Source of the DNA: Folioceros fuciformis
Lineage: Eukaryota
Length of the DNA: 60,872 nt
Direction of reading: 5' to 3'
NCBI GenBank assembly: GCA_049999805.1
Contig: JBNGIO010006333.1
Location: 417,493-478,364 of the forward strand
Both the position numbers and the translations under genes were made by a program. Under the pieces are notes generated by a model, which saw only the letters and a list, made by a program, of their open reading frames with translations, did not search any database and was not told where the DNA came from. Positions 1,608-27,286 of the stretch are shown one piece after another. How positions within the stretch are numbered: position 1 is the first letter of the stretch; every line of letters starts with the position of its first letter.

Positions 1608-1671
1608 GCTGCATTACATCGCCGAAAAAGCCAGACCGCTGCATTACATCGCCGAAAAAGCCAGACCGCTG
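1608..1671. repeat. 30-bp tandem duplication
   Basis: GCTGCATTACATCGCCGAAAAAGCCAGACC occurs twice in tandem. Confidence 0.9.
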
Positions 1672-1794
1672 AGGCACGCAGGAGCTATTGGTACACACAA
1701 AGTAATGAGGCACATAACTCGAGGCCGGCGCAAATGGTTTTGCCTTCGGCATCCCATATGTCATGGGGCCATGCCCACTCGCACCACCAGCACA

Positions 1795-1957
1795 CGTTAC
1801 CGTTGGACGGCAACAGCCGGACCCGTTACCGTTGGACGGCAACAGCCGGACCCGTTACCGTTGGACGGCAACAGCCGGACCCGTTACCGTTGGACGGCAA
1901 CAGCCGGACCCGTTACCGTTGGACGGCAACAGCCGGACCCGTTACCGTTGGACGGCA
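1795..1957. repeat. 29-bp tandem array (CGTTACCGTTGGACGGCAACAGCCGGACC) running into an assembly gap
   Basis: About 5.5 exact copies, followed by 100 N. Confidence 0.95.
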
Positions 1958-2057
1958 NNNNNNNNNNNNNNNNNNNNNNNNNNNNNNNNNNNNNNNNNNN
2001 NNNNNNNNNNNNNNNNNNNNNNNNNNNNNNNNNNNNNNNNNNNNNNNNNNNNNNNNN
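1958..2057. other. Assembly gap (100 N)
   Basis: N run. Confidence 1.
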
Positions 2058-2459
2058 GCCAAACTGCATCCCTAAGTTGTGCTAGGGCATAGTTATTCCA
2101 GGAAATAAAAAACGGCAAAACACTTTGGTTTCAAAACACATGTTAATGAAAGCCTCCGGACCTTCCTCGCTCAATTAGTCGAGTGTGTCACACCAAGCTA
2201 GCAATGTGCGTTGCTTGATCACGCTATGGGAAGTGGTATGATGGTCCTTGTAGGTGCAGGAGGCGTGTGCGTACGGGATGTGCTGCGATGGATTGATTAG
2301 GTGTGGGTGGCTTGTAGTTCATCTCGTTAGTAAAGTGTAAGTTTTCAGGTCCTCCGGTTGATTCACAAGAGTTTTGATTGCTTCGTAGACATCATTTAAT
2401 TAGCCTAATCTCGGGTTCGGTTAAGCATTTTGACGTCAGGTGTTATGCTATCTCCGTAG

Positions 2460-2960
2460 ATGGCAAGGTTTCCTTATGAGATCCAGACTCCACTGCCAGG
2501 CATTTTCAACAAAACTAGCGTGGAATGGCTAGACTCCATACATGTAGTTTGTAAAATTATAATGGAGGTGAAGACTTACATTCCGTGGAAAAGGGTTTCA
2601 GACTTCTCGATAGGTGAGAAACAAAATCCAATTTTTCCAAATAGGCTTGTGAAATGCTACGTGTGGTCTGGGGCAAAGGCACGCAAGTATAATGTCCTAT
2701 CACCAACCACACCAAAACAATACATAAAGTACTGTTGTGCGCATGGTTCCAAATCTGACAACCATCTCCAAAGTGATGCACCTTTGGTGAACATGACTAA
2801 CAGGCCAAAGTCTTGATGTGGAAGTCAAAGGAGCAAGTTGGCTTGTGGGGAGAGCAGGAAAGTAGGTTGTGAGTTTGTGGTTGTTATTACTCAATTGGAG
2901 TTGTTTCAAAATATTGTTCAAATCCGTTTTGATCAAGAGCATACGTGAATGCCTTTGGTG
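2460..2960 (+). pseudogene. N-terminal fragment of a SWIM-zinc-finger-family / MULE-related transposase-like protein
   Basis: YIPWKRVSDFSIGE...YCCAHG...ESRKVGCEF resembles the N-terminal domain of Arabidopsis At1g60560-type SWIM proteins (IPYxRVxxFIxGE...YWCSFG...RGCxCHF, recalled from memory). In-frame stop and frameshift present. Confidence 0.55.
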
Positions 2961-3234
2961 ACTTTAAGTAGATAAAGTAGAAATGCCAATCCTTGCCCAT
3001 TGTGCAAAGACTGGCCACGTTTTTTGTCTTTGCATAGTCACTTGCAACGCGATTGTTGGAATTCATCTTACAACCAAAACTCCATTGTTTGAGACGTATC
3101 ATTCTGTAATCCCTGCATAGACCTTCAATTCAAGACACTGGGCACAGAAATATAGGAACTATGCATGCAAAAACCTCCTGCTGCATTCTCGTTTTGGTGC
3201 ATCCGTTTTTCAATGATATTGTAAGCATTTGAAT

Positions 3235-3540
3235 GCCAAACCAAAGTACAGACATATCATTCTGTAGCCCGTGCAGAGCGCTTTGATTCAAGATATCAGC
3301 CAGGGCATTCTGCAAATAGTGCATGAAGCGACCTGGTAAAAAAGTTCTACTGCAATCTTGTTGTTATGCATTCATTTTCAATGATACCGCAAGATGCCAA
3401 ACCAAAGTATAGACATATCATTCTGTAGCCCATGCAGAGAACTTTGATTCCAGATATGGGCTAGGTCATTTTGCAAATAGTGCATGAAGCAATCTGGAAC
3501 AAACGTTCTACTGCAATCTTGTTGTTATGCATCCGTTTTC
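3235..3540. repeat. About 160-bp diverged tandem duplication inside the Mutator-like element
   Basis: CCAAACCAAAGTAYAGACATATCATTCTGTAGCCC... recurs at about 3236 and 3397. Confidence 0.8.
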
Positions 3541-3594
3541 CACCCATTGTTGGGGAGTTTCATGGCTGTTTTTGGCCAGACAAACCCTGAAAGA

Positions 3595-3822
3595 TAAAGC
3601 AGAGCAAGAAGCTAGATTGAGCTATAATAATTGAATTGCTTGAGAACGTTGTACATATAGTGTCTGGGATGCAGTTGTAACCGCGCTACTATCGAGTGCT
3701 AGCGTAACCGACAGAACTAATCTTCAGCAACTAAAACATTTATCTACTTATGCACGAAACGTGCCCTAATAACTCTTGGGTGCTAAAGCCCAATCTGTGG
3801 CGCCAGAGTTTCTACTCCAACA
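3595..3822 (-). repeat. 3' LTR of the Copia element
   Basis: Direct repeat of 10856-11083 with about 18 mismatches in 228 bp by my manual count. Confidence 0.95.
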
Positions 3823-4061
3823 CTCTCCCTCGCTGCGGATTCTAGCTTGCTGTGATGGATTCGATCTCCCACACATGTCTCAACCTCTTCCTCGATCTTC
3901 CAGGTGCAGAGGTGGAAGGTCGAAGTAGCAGAAGTAGGATGCTGGCAGTGGTGGAGCAGAGCCGTGCTGTCGAAACTAAGGAGCTCCCCCTTTCTATGCA
4001 CTAGTAGCTGCGAAGGGAATGCTCAGATAAAATTCTCTGCTCACCAGTCCTAGAACAGCCT

Positions 4062-6345
4062 GTTCTCCTCATAATAAAAGTCTGGTACCTGGGTGAAGCC
4101 ACGGGCTACCAGCCTGGACTTGTATCTCGAAATAGTTCCATCGGGGTTGAGTTTTCTTCTGAAGGTCCATTTGCAAGAGATTGGTTTGCGTCAAGTAGGC
4201 AGGTCGGTGAGCTTGTAGGTATTATTGGCTATTAAGGAGTCGTATTTAGATTGGATAGATGCCTTCCACTCGGGTGTACTAAGGGCTTCTTCTATGCTTG
4301 CAGGTACATCTTGCATTTCAATTGCTGAAAGAGCTTGATGTAGAGCAAGCTCGATTGGGTTTGCATTGGCAGGTTGGGCTCGAGCGTGAACTGGTGCTTC
4401 TATAGGTGGAACGTCTGCTTGACGAGAAAAAGAATCCCTAGGAATGGAAGGTGGATTTTTCCATAGATGGCTTGGTGGTCTATTGCATACGGAATGCCTT
4501 AGAGGAGGGAGGTAAGGTTCTTGCACGGGTGCCTGGACCATTGGGATGTGGTTCATATCTAAGTCTTGGTTATCTATCACATGATGGTGTGGCTGATCTA
4601 GAACTGCTGGTGCAGGTAGTTGTGGAGGAGGTAGTACCTGGGGCTGTACTTAAGCAGCTGGAACATATGGTGGTGCTTGGGCTACTGGAGCAGGGTAAAC
4701 GAGTTGCCGGTTCTCCTCTTGGACTTGGTTGTCGTCGTAGAGTGTGGCCCCCTCAAGAGCAAGAGGGGAATCCATGTCGAGGAAACCTAACATGCTTGGA
4801 GTAGGGAGGGGGGACGATAGAGAGGCTACATAGGAGTTGAGCAGCAAGGATTCATGGAAGTGGACACTTCTGGAGAGTATTACCTCGCGGGTGGAAAGGT
4901 CAAAAAGGCGATATGCCTTGGCCTATCTGAATACCCGACAAAGAGGAGTTTTCTGCCCTTATCGTCCCATTTGCGTCTGCTAACGTCAGGGATGTGAGCA
5001 AATGTTGGACTGCCAAAGATTTTGATATGGGAGATCCGGGGCTTGTTCCTTGTCCAGCGCTCAAAGGGTGTGATGTTGGTTAGCTCTTTTGTGGGTAATT
5101 TGTTCTTCAGATAGTTGGATGTTGCTACGACCTCGGCCCAGTAGCCTCGAGTGAGCCCAAAAAGCTTGAGTATGGATCTGGACATCTCAAGAAGGGAGCG
5201 ATTCAGTCGCTCAGCAAATGCGTTCTGGGCTGGTGTGTGAGGTACTGTGAGTTGGCGGAGAATCCCTTTGGATTTGTAGAAGTCCTCTAAAGCGTGACTT
5301 GTGTACTCTCCTCTGTTGTCAGTGCGGAGTGTGCTGACCTGGAAACCTGTTTGCCTTTCTGCTGCTAGGACAAATTCTTGGAAACATGTGAGTGCTTCGT
5401 CCTTGTGCCTAAGGAAAAAGATATGGCAGTACTTACTCCAATCGTCCAAGAATGTCAAGAAGTAGCTGTGACCACCAAACTGGAGGTGGTCATTGGTCCG
5501 CAAATATCTGAGTGTACGACCTCCAAGAGACGTCGGGCTCGAGTAGGTGAGGATGTAACTTTGAGTACTTGCATATCTTGCAGAAGAAGTCCTTGGGTAC
5601 CTTGATGCTGACAGGATCCTTATACATGTTCGGGTTGGAAAATGTGCTGAGGTACCGGGGATTGATATGCCCTGCTCGACAGTGCTAGAGTCTAGTGATG
5701 TCAAGGTTGCCTGATAAGGAGTTGGCCACGGCTAGTGCTGAAGACGACTGAATATTGAGCAGGTACAGGTCGTTGAAGGGAAGTCCATGTGCTATAGCAG
5801 TTTGAGTCATGTCATCTGAATGATAGATGGAGCAATGGTTGCCTTGGAAGGTAATTATGAGATTGTGCTCCGTTGCTAGCTTGCGGACTGATAGTAAATT
5901 CTTTGTCATTGTAGGAACGTGGAGGGCACCGTTGATGGTGAGAGTTTCTCCATTAGACAACCGTAGCTGTACCTCACCAGTGCCTTCGATTGGTAGGGAA
6001 CTGTCATCTCCAAGGAGGACGTGCTGGTCGAAGTTGACCATATGGTAGGATGTGAACATATCCTTACTGCTGCAGATGTGGGTCCTTGCACCCGAATCTA
6101 AAAACCATCTACAGCTGTCCGTTCTGGTCAGTGTCAAGCAAACGGCTAGAATTGAGCTTGCAGGGGGTGACTTGATTGATATAGTCGCGTTGGACTCATT
6201 TCTGGGTGAGTCTCGTCAAGGTTCTCCTGATTGTTTCTTCCTGCATTCGTGCTCGTAGTGCTCGGGAATGCGGCACCATTTGCATGGGCCCTTCCCGTTC
6301 TTCTTATGAGGTAGGCTGGAGTTGTTGAATCCTCCAACATTGTCT
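4062..6345 (-). pseudogene. Copia zinc knuckle, protease, integrase and start of RT (frameshifted, with stops)
   Basis: CKWCRIPEHYEHEC knuckle; WFLDSGARTH protease; YFLTFLDDWSKY...LRTDNRGEY...QNAFAERLNRSL integrase; CKWTFRRKLNPDGTISRYKSRLVARGFTQ RT start, truncated near 4062. Confidence 0.92.
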
Positions 6346-6856
6346 AACCCAGACGGGCGGATTCCACAAAGCCTGTTTTGCGCATTTCACATTCGTTGTG
6401 ATCCGCGCTCCTTAACTACCTTTGATCTAATACCACAAACAATGACACCACCGACATGTATCCGAATATTCTTTTTGCTGCAAAGGTCAATAAAACCAAA
6501 ATTAATGAAATAAACAGTTTGAGTCTTCTACACGAAACTTGATATTTTGCAACCCTAAACATATGGTGCGTCGCTCAACCAGCGCACAAACTTTTCAAAG
6601 TACTTCAAGTTCAAGTTTATAACGAGCTCAAATTAAGTCAAGTTTATTGTGAAACAAAAATAAGGTCGTCTTGGTTGGCTTCAGAGTCCACAACTACATC
6701 TAAATCTCTCAGTCATTGTGCATCTGTATTGCCAAAGTCATTAGCACCAACTCGTAGCACTGAGAAGTTGGGGTCCTCTGAAGTTTGGGGCGGCAAAGTA
6801 CAATTCTCATCCCAGACAGTGATGGCGTAAAGGTCTTCCGCAGGCCTATCATCAAT

Positions 6857-7738
6857 CTAGGATATGAACTCTCCTTTCTTGCCCAACATATTGAACACCA
6901 TTAGTTTGCAGTCCACGTTCCCATCACCACACACTTCCTTCGCCCAAAACTTTGATGGGCCTCGCGTAAACGACTCTGTCGTAATCTCCTCATCTGCGTC
7001 AGGCAAAGACCCTAGCCCGATAATCCGTTGCATAATATATGAAGTGCACCTGACATCCACATCGATAGCCACCGCATGCCTTCCATGCTGAACTGCACTT
7101 TGGAGAAGAGATCCCGAGCCTGCCCATGCATCAACCACCCAGTCCCCCTCACAAGAAAACATATTAATTAGCATACTCATCAACCCTAATGGTTTTTGGT
7201 GAGGAGAGACGACATGCGCATTTGCTGAATGAAAAAGGTACTTCTTCACCACCGCCCCATGCCTTATAACCCTTGGGAGCAGAAATCCATGATTCACAAA
7301 AAGTGCAGCCTTCGATTCTTGAGCCTCCGTTTGAACTACACTCCCAACAGTGACATATTCAACTATTTCCACTGCTCCTGCGTTTTGGGGTATGTTCGTC
7401 TTCTCCCATACCAGTGTCTGAATGCTCCCCTTCTTGCACCATGGTCGTAGTGCCTCCCTTTCTTCCGAAATCATATATACTCCATGCATTAGAATAACTC
7501 TAAAAATATTGCTCAAAGTGCATTCATTGAACCCTTGGAGCATTTCATCTAACTCGACTACCTTCATCTGCTTGTCATACTCATCCTGTTGTAATCTCCG
7601 AGGCAGGTCTGCAAATAACAGTGTATAGGGGCGTTTGATGAGAAATGCCTTCATTTCCAGTACATTCCTTTCAATAACCTGGTATTTTACTTTTGAGTTA
7701 CTCGCCGGAACCCGAAAATACGATAGCCTTGCATCCAT
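6857..7738 (-). CDS. Beta-class N6-adenine/N4-cytosine DNA methyltransferase (N6_N4_Mtase-like), probably decayed
   Basis: Motif order: LLFADLP (catalytic motif IV-like), LVWEKTN, VEYVTVG, SPHQKPLGLMSMLINMFSCEGDWVVDAWAGSGS (HPxQKP...GDxVxDxFxGSG SAM-binding), GRHAVAIDVD. The frame continues beyond in-frame stops on both sides (about 6645-7870). Confidence 0.88.
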   Translation of the reverse strand: MDARLSYFRVPASNSKVKYQVIERNVLEMKAFLIKRPYTLLFADLPRRLQQDEYDKQMKVVELDEMLQGFNECTLSNIFRVILMHGVYMISEEREALRPWCKKGSIQTLVWEKTNIPQNAGAVEIVEYVTVGSVVQTEAQESKAALFVNHGFLLPRVIRHGAVVKKYLFHSANAHVVSPHQKPLGLMSMLINMFSCEGDWVVDAWAGSGSLLQSAVQHGRHAVAIDVDVRCTSYIMQRIIGLGSLPDADEEITTESFTRGPSKFWAKEVCGDGNVDCKLMVFNMLGKKGEFIS

Positions 7739-7921
7739 ATCGGCTACTGCCAGCTTCTACTTCTCCTCTTCCATCCTTTTCCAGTTTTTTGCCGAATATA
7801 CGAAATCCTGGAATGGCTTTGGCAGTGACTCCAAGTCCGCTATGTCTGAAGGTTTCTGCAACCAGAATTGTACACATTAGTCTGGCTACTGATAAAGCTA
7901 CTTAAACATGAGCAGACATGA

Positions 7922-8154
7922 GTGCGCTGGTAGACCGGCGCACTCATGCGCGCGAAACGTCGACAATGCGCTGGTCTATCGGTGCACTGGAGTCGGCTGA
8001 GGGAAGTGCATCGGCCTACCGACGCATTACTGCCGGTTGGAGCTCCAGTGCACCGGTCTACCAACGCACTTCCCCCCAGCACGGGCTCTAGTGCGCCGAT
8101 AGACCGGCGCATTGCTGTAGGCTGGAGCTCCAGTGTGCCGGTAGACCAGCGCAC
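7922..8154. repeat. Array of six imperfect 22-bp palindromes (consensus GTGCGCCGG-TAGA-CCGGCGCAC) at about 42-bp spacing
   Basis: Copies start at 7922, 7966, 8006, 8048, 8091 and 8133; further copies at 6566, 9069 and 9102. Confidence 0.85.
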
Positions 8155-8178
8155 GAGAGCCCACTCGGATGGAGTAAG

Positions 8179-8929
8179 AAACAAAGGACAGTTCTGGATA
8201 ATGTCGTTGAATATCATCTGGCACAAATCAGATCAAAACTGGAGATGCGATTACGACAACACTTAGGACCAGGCAAGAACTTGTGGTGGGATGAGTTTTG
8301 GGCAGAGCAAGAGGCTATCGTGCATTCTATAAACTCCGGTGTATACAGAGACCTTGATTCTCCTTGGCGGTGGTATAATCGGGAGGCGGCAGAATTATTG
8401 AATGCACCCGTAACTGTACTAGACAAAATCGTTGTTCACAATCCATGCATCCGCGAGATTCCCAAAAGAAACATGTATGTGGGGGCATACCATAGGGAGA
8501 CGGACCTCAATGACGACCGCGAAAGTTTGAACGAGGATATAACCAAAATAGAAAAAGGGCATATGATTGCAGTCCCTTGCGAGACTGACAAAGACAATAA
8601 GGCCGTTTTGGATTGCCAAAGTCTTAGAGGCAGATATTACATGTGAAAAACCATATGTCAAAGTGCACTAGTGGGTAACCAAATGTTTAGATGCTTTTGA
8701 GGGTCATTACCAAGAAGAGATGATTTTACCACATGAAGCTTCGCCAAGAGGGTTACGTGACGGTCGCAGACGTAGGTCAAGCAGAAGACTTCAAAAGCAT
8801 ATAGATACATTATTCATTGAAGATACTTTTATTCTAGCATATGGATTTGACTTGACACACCAAAAACAACTTCCCTCCCGAATGAGGACTCTCATTCGCA
8901 GAAACCTATACGTCCTCAATCGCGACTAG
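8179..8929 (+). pseudogene. C-terminal fragment of a transposon protein with a Tudor/SH3-barrel-like motif
   Basis: ORFs 8245-8646 and 8720-8929 join through one frameshift near 8597 and one stop: KGHMIAV...RPFWIAKVL...YVKVH*W...ILAYGFDLT...LP. The fold assignment is inference. Confidence 0.55.
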
Positions 8930-9515
8930 GATACACTGCCGCCTGAAAATAATGAAAACTTGTTAGACGTTTAGATAAAAGTGTTAAGTACAAATTGGTA
9001 TGATAATTTTTGTATGTAGCGCCAAGCAAGTTTCGTTTTCCACTTGACACACATGTGTCTTTAGCAGTGTGCGCCGATCAACCGGCGCACTTTATTAAAG
9101 AGTGCGCCGGTCTACCGGCACACTCCCGCTTGTTCCGCGTCGGTTCACTGGTGTTCTATTTCGCCACCATTTCTGAAAAATGTAGATAGATATCGACAAG
9201 TGATAATTTTGAGGAACAGGGTCACCTGATATGAGGTATAGCTCAAACACTTATGACTGTGCATGGAATTTGATAACACGTGAATTACGTGATACCCGCC
9301 ATAGTACGAAGTTTTGTCATGTATTTGATTGCAATGACACCTGCAAATTTGCTAGTACTTAGGAAACAATTGATTATTAAGTTTATACTCAACACTCTTT
9401 TAGGCCACATTTCGGGTTCTCCTGACAAAAACACGTGAAAATGCGAATATCTGACATGAGTTTTCAGCGTCAAAATCTCGCGAAGCCTGAAATGGTAGAA
9501 TACGCCCGTCTGGGT

Positions 9516-10351
9516 TAGGCACTGTTCTCCAAGTGATGATTGTTGGTCTGAGGATCTTTTGGCGGAGATTCTCCCCCTGCCTCTGCCTCGTCTTCCTCCT
9601 CGGCCTTGAGAAGTAAAGAGGACGTGATTTGCACCTTGACTTGTGCGTGGATTGCTGGAGCGGCTGGATTCTTCCTCCAAGAGTTTGCCAACGACTTCTA
9701 AGAAAGTGTAAGTTGGCGTGGCTCTAGTTGTAGTTGCCTGAATTGCCTGTCTAAGAACCGAGTTCTGTGAACTGACAAATGTCCTATATGACGAGGGGAG
9801 AGATGTTAGCAACGTTACTGCAGCCTGGAGCTCTATGACAGTTGTGCCACAAGCTGCAACCCTGGCCCGTGAGGACCTGAAGTTGTGTACGTGCTGTTCT
9901 GCACTCTCATTCTCCTTCATTTTCAGCGTGTAGAAATGTCTTGTTGCATGTATAAGGGACATGGAACTTTGGGATTGGAACATGTCTTTGAAAGCCTTCC
10001 AAATCCCGTGGGCTGTGGTCTGCCCATGTGTATGCCGAAGCACGGTTTTATCTAAAGCTGAGATAAGCAAATTTCTGGCCTTCTTATCTTTCTTATGCCA
10101 AGCAGCTATCAGGTCGGGAGTCCCCACAGGGGTTGTTGTAGTAGAGGGTATAGGGAATGTCCCATCGGTATGTCCATGAGATCTTGGTCCTCGAGAAGTG
10201 CAATTATGCGCATTTCCCACACGTCGAAGTCAGTTCCTGTGAAGCGATCACGGTCACGGAACTCGATCTTCGTTGTGTTGATAACCGTACCCGTTGCCGT
10301 TAGTTTCCTGAATTTTTTGAAGTGCGGTTTAAGTGGATCGAAGGCGAGCAT
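9516..10351 (-). pseudogene. Copia gag (UBN2-like), N-terminal part
   Basis: FTGTDFDVWEMRIIALL; WHKKDKKARNLL; TAHGIWKAFKDMF; LLTSLPSSY; RG-rich segment. One frameshift near 10180. Confidence 0.9.
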
Positions 10352-15120: not shown

Positions 15121-16259
15121 TCAAACTGGAACCCTTCGTTCTCGATACCGGCCAAATATCTGCCAGATAAGAGAGAGTGCAGAAATCAAATCAGAAAATC
15201 AGAATCGATAGGCACCAGAAGTTGAACCTTTGGGAAGTCACAAGTCCTTCCACACTAGGAGAATGACGACACATAATTCCGTACCGAGACCAGAAAAGGT
15301 TGTTGAAGGATCCAACCAAGGACTGGAACTCTCTGCAAAAACACTGCTACCGTAGGCCAGAATCCGCTGCAACCCCACCAAGCAATAGCGAATGAGAGCC
15401 CATAATTTCTCAGCAACAGGCCGGACTGACTTTATGATTTTCTTGAGGCATTACCTGAAAAGCACAATGAAGCCGTATGCCTCAATGATCATCCCCAGTA
15501 TGGCNNNNNNNNNNNNNNNNNNNNNNNNNNNNNNNNNNNNNNNNNNNNNNNNNNNNNNNNNNNNNNNNNNNNNNNNNNNNNNNNNNNNNNNNNNNNNNNN
15601 NNNNCATCCAATCAACACCAACCCAAAACCGACAAGGAAAGATATCGAACCCTGCCATAACAGCCAAGAGATATTCATGAGAGAGTGTGCGAGTAGCAGT
15701 TGCACTAGACAAACATCTAAACGCATTGGCATCAACACGGTGGTGGGATCTCAGAAACAGCATTCCCTGAACCAGCCTACCTTGTAGTTGCGGGGTTTGA
15801 GGAAGAAAGATACGGTCGACCTTGGACCAATCGTGAGTGTGACACCGGACAAGAAAAGGATCTGCAATGTGAGAGAACGAGCATCATAACAGCTTCCACG
15901 CCACCAAAAAAAAAAAGAACAGGTTTCAGCATAATACGTTGCACTTACATTGCCCATAGCAAGAAGACCCTTGTCGAAGAAGAATACCACTCCCAGAAAT
16001 GAAAACAGCACTCCAAATCCAGTAAGCCCAACGCCAATTTCTGTTGCAAGGCAGAACCGGAGCAGATTAGTCGTAACTACTACTTCAGATCTCACTCAAA
16101 GAACCAGCATGCGCACGGCCAGCTCCATGCAGCCACTAGCAAGCACTCAAGAGCTCCGTCACCGGCGATGGCCAACACACGAAGCAAAGAACCTTAGGGC
16201 ATGAGCATCTTCGTGCTAAAACGCTTACTCTTGCGATCGTTCATCTCGAAGGAAACCAT
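15121..16259 (-). CDS. GOT1: Vesicle transport protein GOT1 (6 coding exons; one interrupted by an N gap)
   Basis: Spliced translation MVSFEMNDRKKIGVGLTGFGVLFSFLGVVFFFDKGLLAMGNILFLSGV...SGFWPTVAVFLQRVPVLGWILQQPF...RRVPV*, with GT-AG introns. Confidence 0.95.
15505..15604. other. Assembly gap (100 N) inside a GOT1 exon
   Basis: N run. Confidence 1.
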
Positions 16260-27186: not shown

Positions 27187-27286
27187 NNNNNNNNNNNNNN
27201 NNNNNNNNNNNNNNNNNNNNNNNNNNNNNNNNNNNNNNNNNNNNNNNNNNNNNNNNNNNNNNNNNNNNNNNNNNNNNNNNNNNNNN
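27187..27286. other. Assembly gap (100 N) in an AT-rich intergenic block
   Basis: N run. Confidence 1.

Follow-up and report, generated by a model that had tools for sequence, protein, structure and literature searches.

A decayed inverted-end transposon copy in Folioceros fuciformis and its divergent gene with a predicted methyltransferase fold

How does a gene reminiscent of bacterial and phage DNA methyltransferases come to lie inside a retrotransposon of Folioceros fuciformis, and what might its product do there? The question is raised by a stretch of 60,872 nucleotides from contig JBNGIO010006333.1 (positions 417,493 to 478,364; hereafter the window, with coordinates counted from its first letter), in which a 3191-bp insertion splits the gag sequence of a minus-strand Ty1/copia element. 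We give a probability of roughly 55% to the reading that this insertion is a decayed copy of an inverted-end transposon family, that it carries a divergent methyltransferase-fold gene and an orphan open reading frame (ORF2) arranged around palindromes, and that the methyltransferase-like protein acts on DNA.

We began from the borders of the element. A repeat search places the transposon at 6336-9526, with ends formed by 32-nt terminal inverted repeats in which 28 of the 32 positions are paired (88% complementary). The left arm occupies 6336-6367 on the plus strand and the right arm 9495-9526 on the minus strand. Each holds a perfect 13-nt core, ACCCAGACGGGCG, which occurs exactly twice in the window and in inverted orientation (6347-6359 and 9503-9515). 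The core pattern taken alone is a weak test, given that 19 of 100 shuffled sequences contained at least two matches when up to two mismatches were allowed. The extension of the core into 32-nt arms is the stronger evidence. Immediately outside the arms stands a direct repeat, CTCC, at 6332-6335 on the left and 9527-9530 on the right, which can be read as CTCCA if one further base is taken on each side (6332-6336 and 9527-9531). Moreover, contigs assembled from DNA sequencing runs (X1 and X2) contain an insert-free copia paralogue, about 91% identical to the flanks of the element, in which 6331 is joined to 9527 and 3195 bases are skipped (depth 93.9 in X1 and 76.9 in X2; five letters at the joint are ambiguous). 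This number is the sum of a 3191-bp element and a 4-bp duplication (or of 3190 and 5) and does not fit 3169 and 2. The target duplication of the element is thus 4 bp, possibly 5 bp.

These results refine what a first-pass annotation, made from the sequence alone, had claimed. It described a cleanly bounded element with 21-bp inverted repeats at 6347-9515, flanked by TA. The inverted ends, the target duplication and the empty site agree with a bounded element, and the 13-bp core is indeed perfect at 6347-6359 and 9503-9515, but the borders were misplaced: the arms measure 32 nt, both extending 11 nt beyond the proposed ends, and the duplicated target is CTCC. Since the empty site lacks 3195 bases and not 3171, the TA sits inside the 32-nt arms, and a Tc1/mariner-type identity, which TA flanks would have suggested, does not fit. 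It is also true, as was claimed, that the frame of the host gag is restored when the element is removed. However, 3171 and 3195 are both multiples of three, and the gag and zinc-knuckle frames are therefore kept under either border model, so that the frame is no arbiter between them and no proof of the narrower span.

The next question is whether the element was captured once or belongs to a family. Contigs of three DNA runs (X1, X2 and X3) were aligned to positions 5900-9950 at an identity of at least 80% and counted in 30 bins. This region was matched by 1090 contigs in X1, 1010 in X2 and 846 in X3, and in X1 these fell into broad identity classes (109 at 99% or above, 262 at 95-99%, 413 at 90-95% and 306 below 90%). 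All 30 bins were covered. Summed depth, which is no copy number, was 200-800 within the element as against about 95 in the copia flanks, with 221-607 in the methyltransferase bins, 387-794 in the ORF2 bins and 240-290 in the end bins; contigs identical to the window had a depth of 10.8 (X1) and 5.2 (X2). Because depth over the methyltransferase ORF is comparable with that over the remainder of the element, the element is a member of a diverged multi-copy family and not a one-off capture, in keeping with the transposon family that the first-pass annotation had proposed (each run supplies about 1000 contigs with 80-100% identity, including those over the methyltransferase ORF). Read cautiously, contig depth puts the number of element copies in the tens. 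Some contigs carry internal deletions inside the methyltransferase gene (7115 joined to 7617, and 7448 to 7821). As a separate observation, G>A (227) and C>T (148) are strongly over-represented among the differences in X3, and only 21 of its 846 contigs reach 99% identity; this pattern would fit a converted (bisulfite-like) library which, if so, carries 5-methylcytosine (5mC) information on the family.

What, then, does the family carry? The methyltransferase-like ORF lies at 6857-7738 on the minus strand, is intronless and encodes 293 amino acids. Its product passes the PF01555 (N6_N4_Mtase) profile of Pfam at 42 bits (gathering cut-off 26.7, E 1.4e-10), and its NCBIfam scores are far under the curated cut-offs. 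With a 19-row family alignment as input, AlphaFold2 returned a model with a predicted local distance difference test score (pLDDT) of 77.3 and a predicted template modelling score (pTM) of 0.79. Foldseek matched this model to CcrM, M.RsrI, M.MboIIA, M.BceJIV and N4CMT (E 1e-14 to 2e-12), the first three within E 1e-14 to 3e-13 and CcrM (6pbd) at E 1.2e-14. The motifs appear in permuted order: D44-L-P-R47, in the place of motif IV, follows a strand at 38-44, and D203..G207-S-G209 (motif I) follows a strand at 200-204. By domain match and model, therefore, the protein is predicted to fold as a beta-class (circularly permuted) amino-methyltransferase, with its motifs in the order of that class, which is what had been read from the intronless ORF at the outset. 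The family alignment shows three features preserved: the QKP motif, motif I and an acidic strand-2 end.

The 293-amino-acid ORF is the remnant of a longer one. An in-frame TAG at 7757-7759 (minus strand) separates it from an upstream stretch at 7760-7876, also on the minus strand, whose 39 residues (containing LPKPFQDFVYSAKNWK) can be aligned with a conserved N-terminal segment seen in P0002, P0011 and P0018, which are relatives of the ORF protein. In this segment (..LP..F..H/F...AK.WK..) P19 and F22 are invariant; the upstream start codon is gone. Codon 48, at 7595-7597 on the minus strand, is AGA (arginine) in the window, giving D44-L-P-R47-R48, whereas in most family contigs position 7597 is C and the codon hence GGA (glycine). 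With Gly48, the family therefore reads DLPRG, like its distant relatives.

The second gene is likewise damaged. The divergent ORF2 which had been noted beside the methyltransferase gene is present at 8161/8245-8929 on the plus strand, in the opposite orientation. Its first part (8161-8646, with an ATG at 8245) loses its frame near 8599 through a 1-bp insertion; its continuation contains an in-frame TAG at 8669-8671 and ends in a last part of 85 amino acids plus stop at 8672-8929. The inserted base is missing from four contigs in X1 and five in X2 and, because these contigs join both parts in frame, ORF2 is a real family gene that is broken in the window. With both genes damaged, the window copy is dead. 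ORF2 found no relatives among about 5.8 billion clustered proteins searched in two length bands ('longer', 202 candidates, and 'near', 13 candidates). In Pfam at E<=10 its only match was LytM_N (0.049, under its cut-off), NCBIfam gave no match, the Atlas gave nothing usable, and a tblastn search of 80 metagenome loci holding methyltransferase relatives found no match.

Where does the methyltransferase-like gene come from? An exhaustive HMMER search with the ORF protein returned 297 proteins at E<=1e-3, 17 of them at E<=1e-10, the best relative (P0002) being 34% identical across residues 19-254. A word-indexed protein search gave one weak match among 718 candidates. Phage records yielded 287 weak partial matches, none of which covered at least 80% of the ORF protein, and viral contigs a single partial match. 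The named relatives are hypothetical proteins of Chara braunii (GBG86584.1, GBG75370.1, GBG66685.1 and GBG82070.1), Ginkgo biloba (Gb_37443), Adiantum nelumboides (MCO5553878.1, MCO5614432.1, MCO5579754.1 and MCO5559057.1) and Riccia sorocarpa (KAL3677677.1 and KAL3685543.1), forming a streptophyte set described as 'DNA methylase N-4/N-6 domain-containing', and all of them read D-x-P-Y/H-G. Among the 157 relatives compared, DLPR is found in P0002, P0003, P0004 and P0077, as it is in the window protein. A tree of 50 rows was built from the window protein and 49 of the 157 relatives, selected for coverage of both domain halves. It contains a clade of 24 rows (Shimodaira-Hasegawa-like approximate likelihood ratio test, SH-aLRT, 99) in which the window protein stands together with the DLPR rows and all of the named streptophyte sequences, while the 26 rows of DPPY type fall outside it. 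Within this clade the window protein joins the DLPR rows at SH-aLRT 92.

On this tree the gene is 'bacterial-type' in its fold only, with its nearest kin among eukaryotes (streptophytes), and the idea of a bacterial-type cassette of recent origin falls, as the protein groups with streptophyte genes. Recent bacterial contamination or transfer was also rejected, since copia gag sequence encloses the element, whose relatives are eukaryotic. The window gene and the streptophyte proteins have in common an N-terminal segment P..F..H...A, the motifs W.K.N and YQKP, the sequence DW(V/I)LD..GSG and a non-canonical D-x-P in motif IV. They differ in that the streptophyte proteins carry D-x-P-Y/H-G in the place of DLPRG, and many are 570-1825 amino acids long with a long N-terminal region. 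The window protein represents a sister subclade and not a typical member of the D-x-P-[YH]-G clade: the fourth residue of its motif is arginine, and its gene lacks both introns and the long N-terminal region. To our knowledge, none of the named streptophyte relatives is transposon-borne.

A metagenome scan recovered 137 relatives, from which a set of 80 loci was retained. Among these loci motif IV reads DIPYG in 16, DIPHG in 13 and DIPAG in 1, with no instance of DLPRG, and the relatives have introns and a long N-terminal region, some of them with stops. The locus L004 may serve as an illustration. At 1629-4647 it contains an intron-bearing gene with a first exon of 468 amino acids (including YYVIGGSHSAEARRQL), followed by methyltransferase exons of the DIPYG type; the same gene type is seen in L001-L013, L023, L024 and L033, and several of its paralogues (L008 and L048) have in-frame stops. 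Genes of this type form a multi-copy eukaryotic family. The 13-nt core of the transposon ends was not found in the 66 of the 80 metagenome loci that were checked. For the N-terminal region of the long relatives we considered a ParB-like domain, on the strength of a GG.H..EAR motif, and rejected it as unsupported by Pfam and by a PDB profile search; a structural model of that region (pLDDT 51.6) was too poor for use. One fern gene model of 720 amino acids (P0156, Adiantum nelumboides MCO5614432.1) has a retroelement-integrase-like N-terminus fused to the methyltransferase domain, and hints at repeat-rich DNA around the fern members of the clade.

The third constituent of the element is a set of palindromes, with a unit of approximately AGTGCGCCGGTnnACCGGCGCACT that holds GCGC and CCGG. 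A pattern of 22 nt derived from it matched seven times, always within the element and nowhere else in the window, whereas 100 shuffles produced no match at all, which bears out the palindrome array described at first sight. A repeat search found eight palindrome copies in each of two repeat families. By repeat and pattern search, six palindromes of 22-27 nt, spaced 42-44 nt apart, lie at 7917-8160 between the divergent genes, and two further copies lie at 9068-9127, about 400-460 nt from the right end; a degenerate copy with three mismatches is found at 6565-6591, about 230 nt from the left end. Tandem Repeats Finder did not detect the array, and Rfam gave no match. Several family contigs contain the same palindrome with other 20-nt spacers, so palindrome-spacer arrays differ between copies and may recombine. 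Some contigs link palindrome copies across 1150-1156 bases (7944 to 9101 and neighbouring positions, within 7944-9125). Because the palindromes are spread over the element in this manner, their distribution suggests protein-binding sites.

Divergent genes around palindromes may also resemble the layout of bacterial restriction-modification cassettes. The element would then be a selfish cassette of that kind, in which the methyltransferase and ORF2 act as a modification and nuclease pair with the palindromes as operators. We regard this as highly improbable, as ORF2 matches no nuclease or other family (Pfam, NCBIfam and Atlas) and none of the 80 metagenome loci of methyltransferase relatives has an ORF2-like neighbour.

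Several observations weigh against our reading of the element as a member of a transposon family whose protein acts on DNA. The three DNA runs represent one sample, possibly the window's own source, and with contigs of about 300 nt there is no single contig that holds both ends and the methyltransferase gene of another copy. The sole run presumed to be RNA gave two contigs, both from the copia flank only. Between the window and most family contigs nine ORF sites differ, seven of which change a residue and two of which are silent, and this count shows only the drift of the window copy. Of all parts of the element, family contigs share the central palindrome array least (bin 7940-8075; depth 43 / 25 / 0.02), and the link between protein and palindromes is a guess. 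The four ORFs that were scanned with Pfam contain no transposase domain, and the 4- or 5-bp duplication together with these ends matches no superfamily testable here. Finally, the PF01555 match is limited to residues 169-228 (profile positions 159-212 of 221), which is the half that binds S-adenosylmethionine (AdoMet), and the motif that is to contribute to catalysis departs from the class: in the accessible part of one survey the enzymes are defined by [DNSH]PP[YFW] ending strand 4 (PMC4738411), and the window protein has leucine for the first proline and arginine for the stacking aromatic residue.

The last of these points bears most directly on what the protein could do. Catalysis is uncertain because motif IV reads DLPRG. 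That a DLPRG protein, with arginine in place of the stacking aromatic, transfers methyl groups as a real methyltransferase is in our estimate a little short of an even chance, a non-catalytic binder of AdoMet or DNA taking the rest, and the role of an 'epigenetic writer', which had been attached to the ORF from the start, is doubtful. One alternative holds that the DLPRG subclade has lost catalysis altogether and that its proteins are AdoMet-sensing or DNA-binding accessory factors, for example regulators at the palindromes. The altered residues speak for it, being found in the window protein and in 4 of the 157 relatives (those with DLPR), and there is some precedent in the methyltransferase domains of DIRS1, cited as probably inactive in what could be seen of the same survey (PMC4738411). 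Nevertheless, DLPRG is itself conserved among proteins that are only about 30% identical, and three other features persist (motif I, QKP and the acidic terminus of strand 2). Moreover, DMPY, DAPY and DLPY occur among the DPPY-type sequences of the relatives, which indicates that the first proline is dispensable in the class. We consider this alternative possible, though on the unlikely side.

The lack of a transposase leads to another alternative, in which the element is a non-autonomous, Pack-type transposon that acquired two host genes, one of them methyltransferase-like, which were multiplied along with it but do nothing for it. Such passenger capture would agree with the decay of both genes in the window copy and with a related clade made up of intron-bearing, cellular-looking genes. 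However, the methyltransferase-like gene is whole, intronless and about 340 codons long, and is no fragment; Gly48 and the frame of ORF2 are intact in most family contigs; and no host source gene for ORF2 is visible among the clustered proteins searched. We therefore hold capture of idle passengers to be improbable, markedly more so than loss of catalysis.

If the element is, as we prefer, a family member whose protein acts on DNA, its biology might be pictured as follows. The window copy, and possibly the whole family, would move in trans, because no transposase is encoded in the element. In intact copies the protein would still bind AdoMet, as may be expected from the preservation of motif I and of an acidic strand-2 end, and would act on DNA. 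As its target we would guess first at the palindromes that the element itself carries, which hold GCGC and CCGG and lie at its centre and near both ends; by marking or occupying them the protein may tune the expression or the transposition of the element. The control of IS10 and Tn5 by Dam in bacteria offers a functional analogy. A bolder version has the DLPRG protein as an active amino-methyltransferase that writes N6-methyladenine (6mA) or N4-methylcytosine (4mC) on the palindromes of the element, and the D-x-P-Y/H/R-G clade as a lineage-wide, partly transposon-borne source of non-5mC modification. We regard it as unlikely, about half as credible as the loss of catalysis considered above. 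The named members of this clade come from Chara, a liverwort, a fern and Ginkgo, all four of which have swimming sperm.

How does such an element compare with systems already described? The bacterial and phage beta-class enzymes (CcrM 6pbd, M.RsrI 1eg2, M.MboIIA 1g60 and M.BceJIV 8urk) share the fold in its permuted order, with Foldseek E values of 1e-14 to 1e-12 and template modelling scores of 0.49-0.60 (normalised by query) against the ORF model, and their AdoMet-binding half is recognisable by sequence. They differ in being only 14-20% identical, in reading DPPY in the place of DLPR(G) and in falling into a separate clade of the tree. Among eukaryotes, the bdelloid N4CMT (PMC8885841) and the Marchantia MpDN4MT1a/b (bioRxiv 10.1101/2021.02.12.428880) are also PF01555-type proteins resident in the genome, according to those parts of the two reports that were accessible. 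N4CMT is a structural match to the ORF model (8s9o, E 1.9e-12) but reaches only E 0.5-0.6 by sequence, and it has a chromodomain; the motif of MpDN4MT1 is given as TSPPY in the available text of the Marchantia report (bioRxiv 10.1101/2021.02.12.428880). In contrast to the gene studied here, both are host genes and not transposon cargo, and represent independent acquisitions. The window protein is close to neither of them.

Mobile elements with a DNA methyltransferase-like gene of their own offer the other likeness. The accessible portion of a recent preprint describes the retrotransposons DAM-DIRS and DAM-LTR, which carry Dam-type enzymes, names Gypsy-DNMT3 and SymbioLINE-DNMT as further methyltransferase-carrying elements, and gives DAM-LTRs as absent from Streptophyta (bioRxiv 10.64898/2026.05.21.726589). 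All of these carriers are retrotransposons, and their enzymes are of the Dam type (Asn-Pro-Pro) or the C5 type, whereas the element in the window has inverted ends, a target duplication and a gene of the permuted PF01555 type. No description of an inverted-end element with a PF01555-type gene was found in the literature searched, in which supplementary lists might still name such families.

On the minus strand, the host gag domain (Retrotran_gag_2, matched within 9285-10220) is interrupted by the element and occupies 9527-10220, while the rest of gag with its zinc knuckle, the protease region with Pol_BBD and the integrase follow at 4880-6331, as judged from domain matches and frame (Pol_BBD within 5685-6137; rve and SH3_retrovirus within 4880-5704). 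The host copia family is itself repeated, the insert-free contig standing at depths of 93.9 (X1) and 76.9 (X2) versus 10.8 and 5.2 for window-identical contigs. Neither the element nor its host copia has a second copy within the 60.9-kb window. Three runs of exactly 100 N (1958-2057, 15505-15604 and 27187-27286) mark scaffold gaps.

In summary, the value of this locus lies in the family and not in the dead copy that the window holds. The transposons so far described as bringing a DNA methyltransferase of their own are retrotransposons, and their enzymes are C5 or Dam-type; if our reading is true, this theme would be widened to another class of transposon and another class of enzyme. Moreover, an unstudied eukaryotic clade with an altered catalytic motif would become, in Chara, liverworts, ferns and Ginkgo, a concrete candidate where 6mA or 4mC is concerned.

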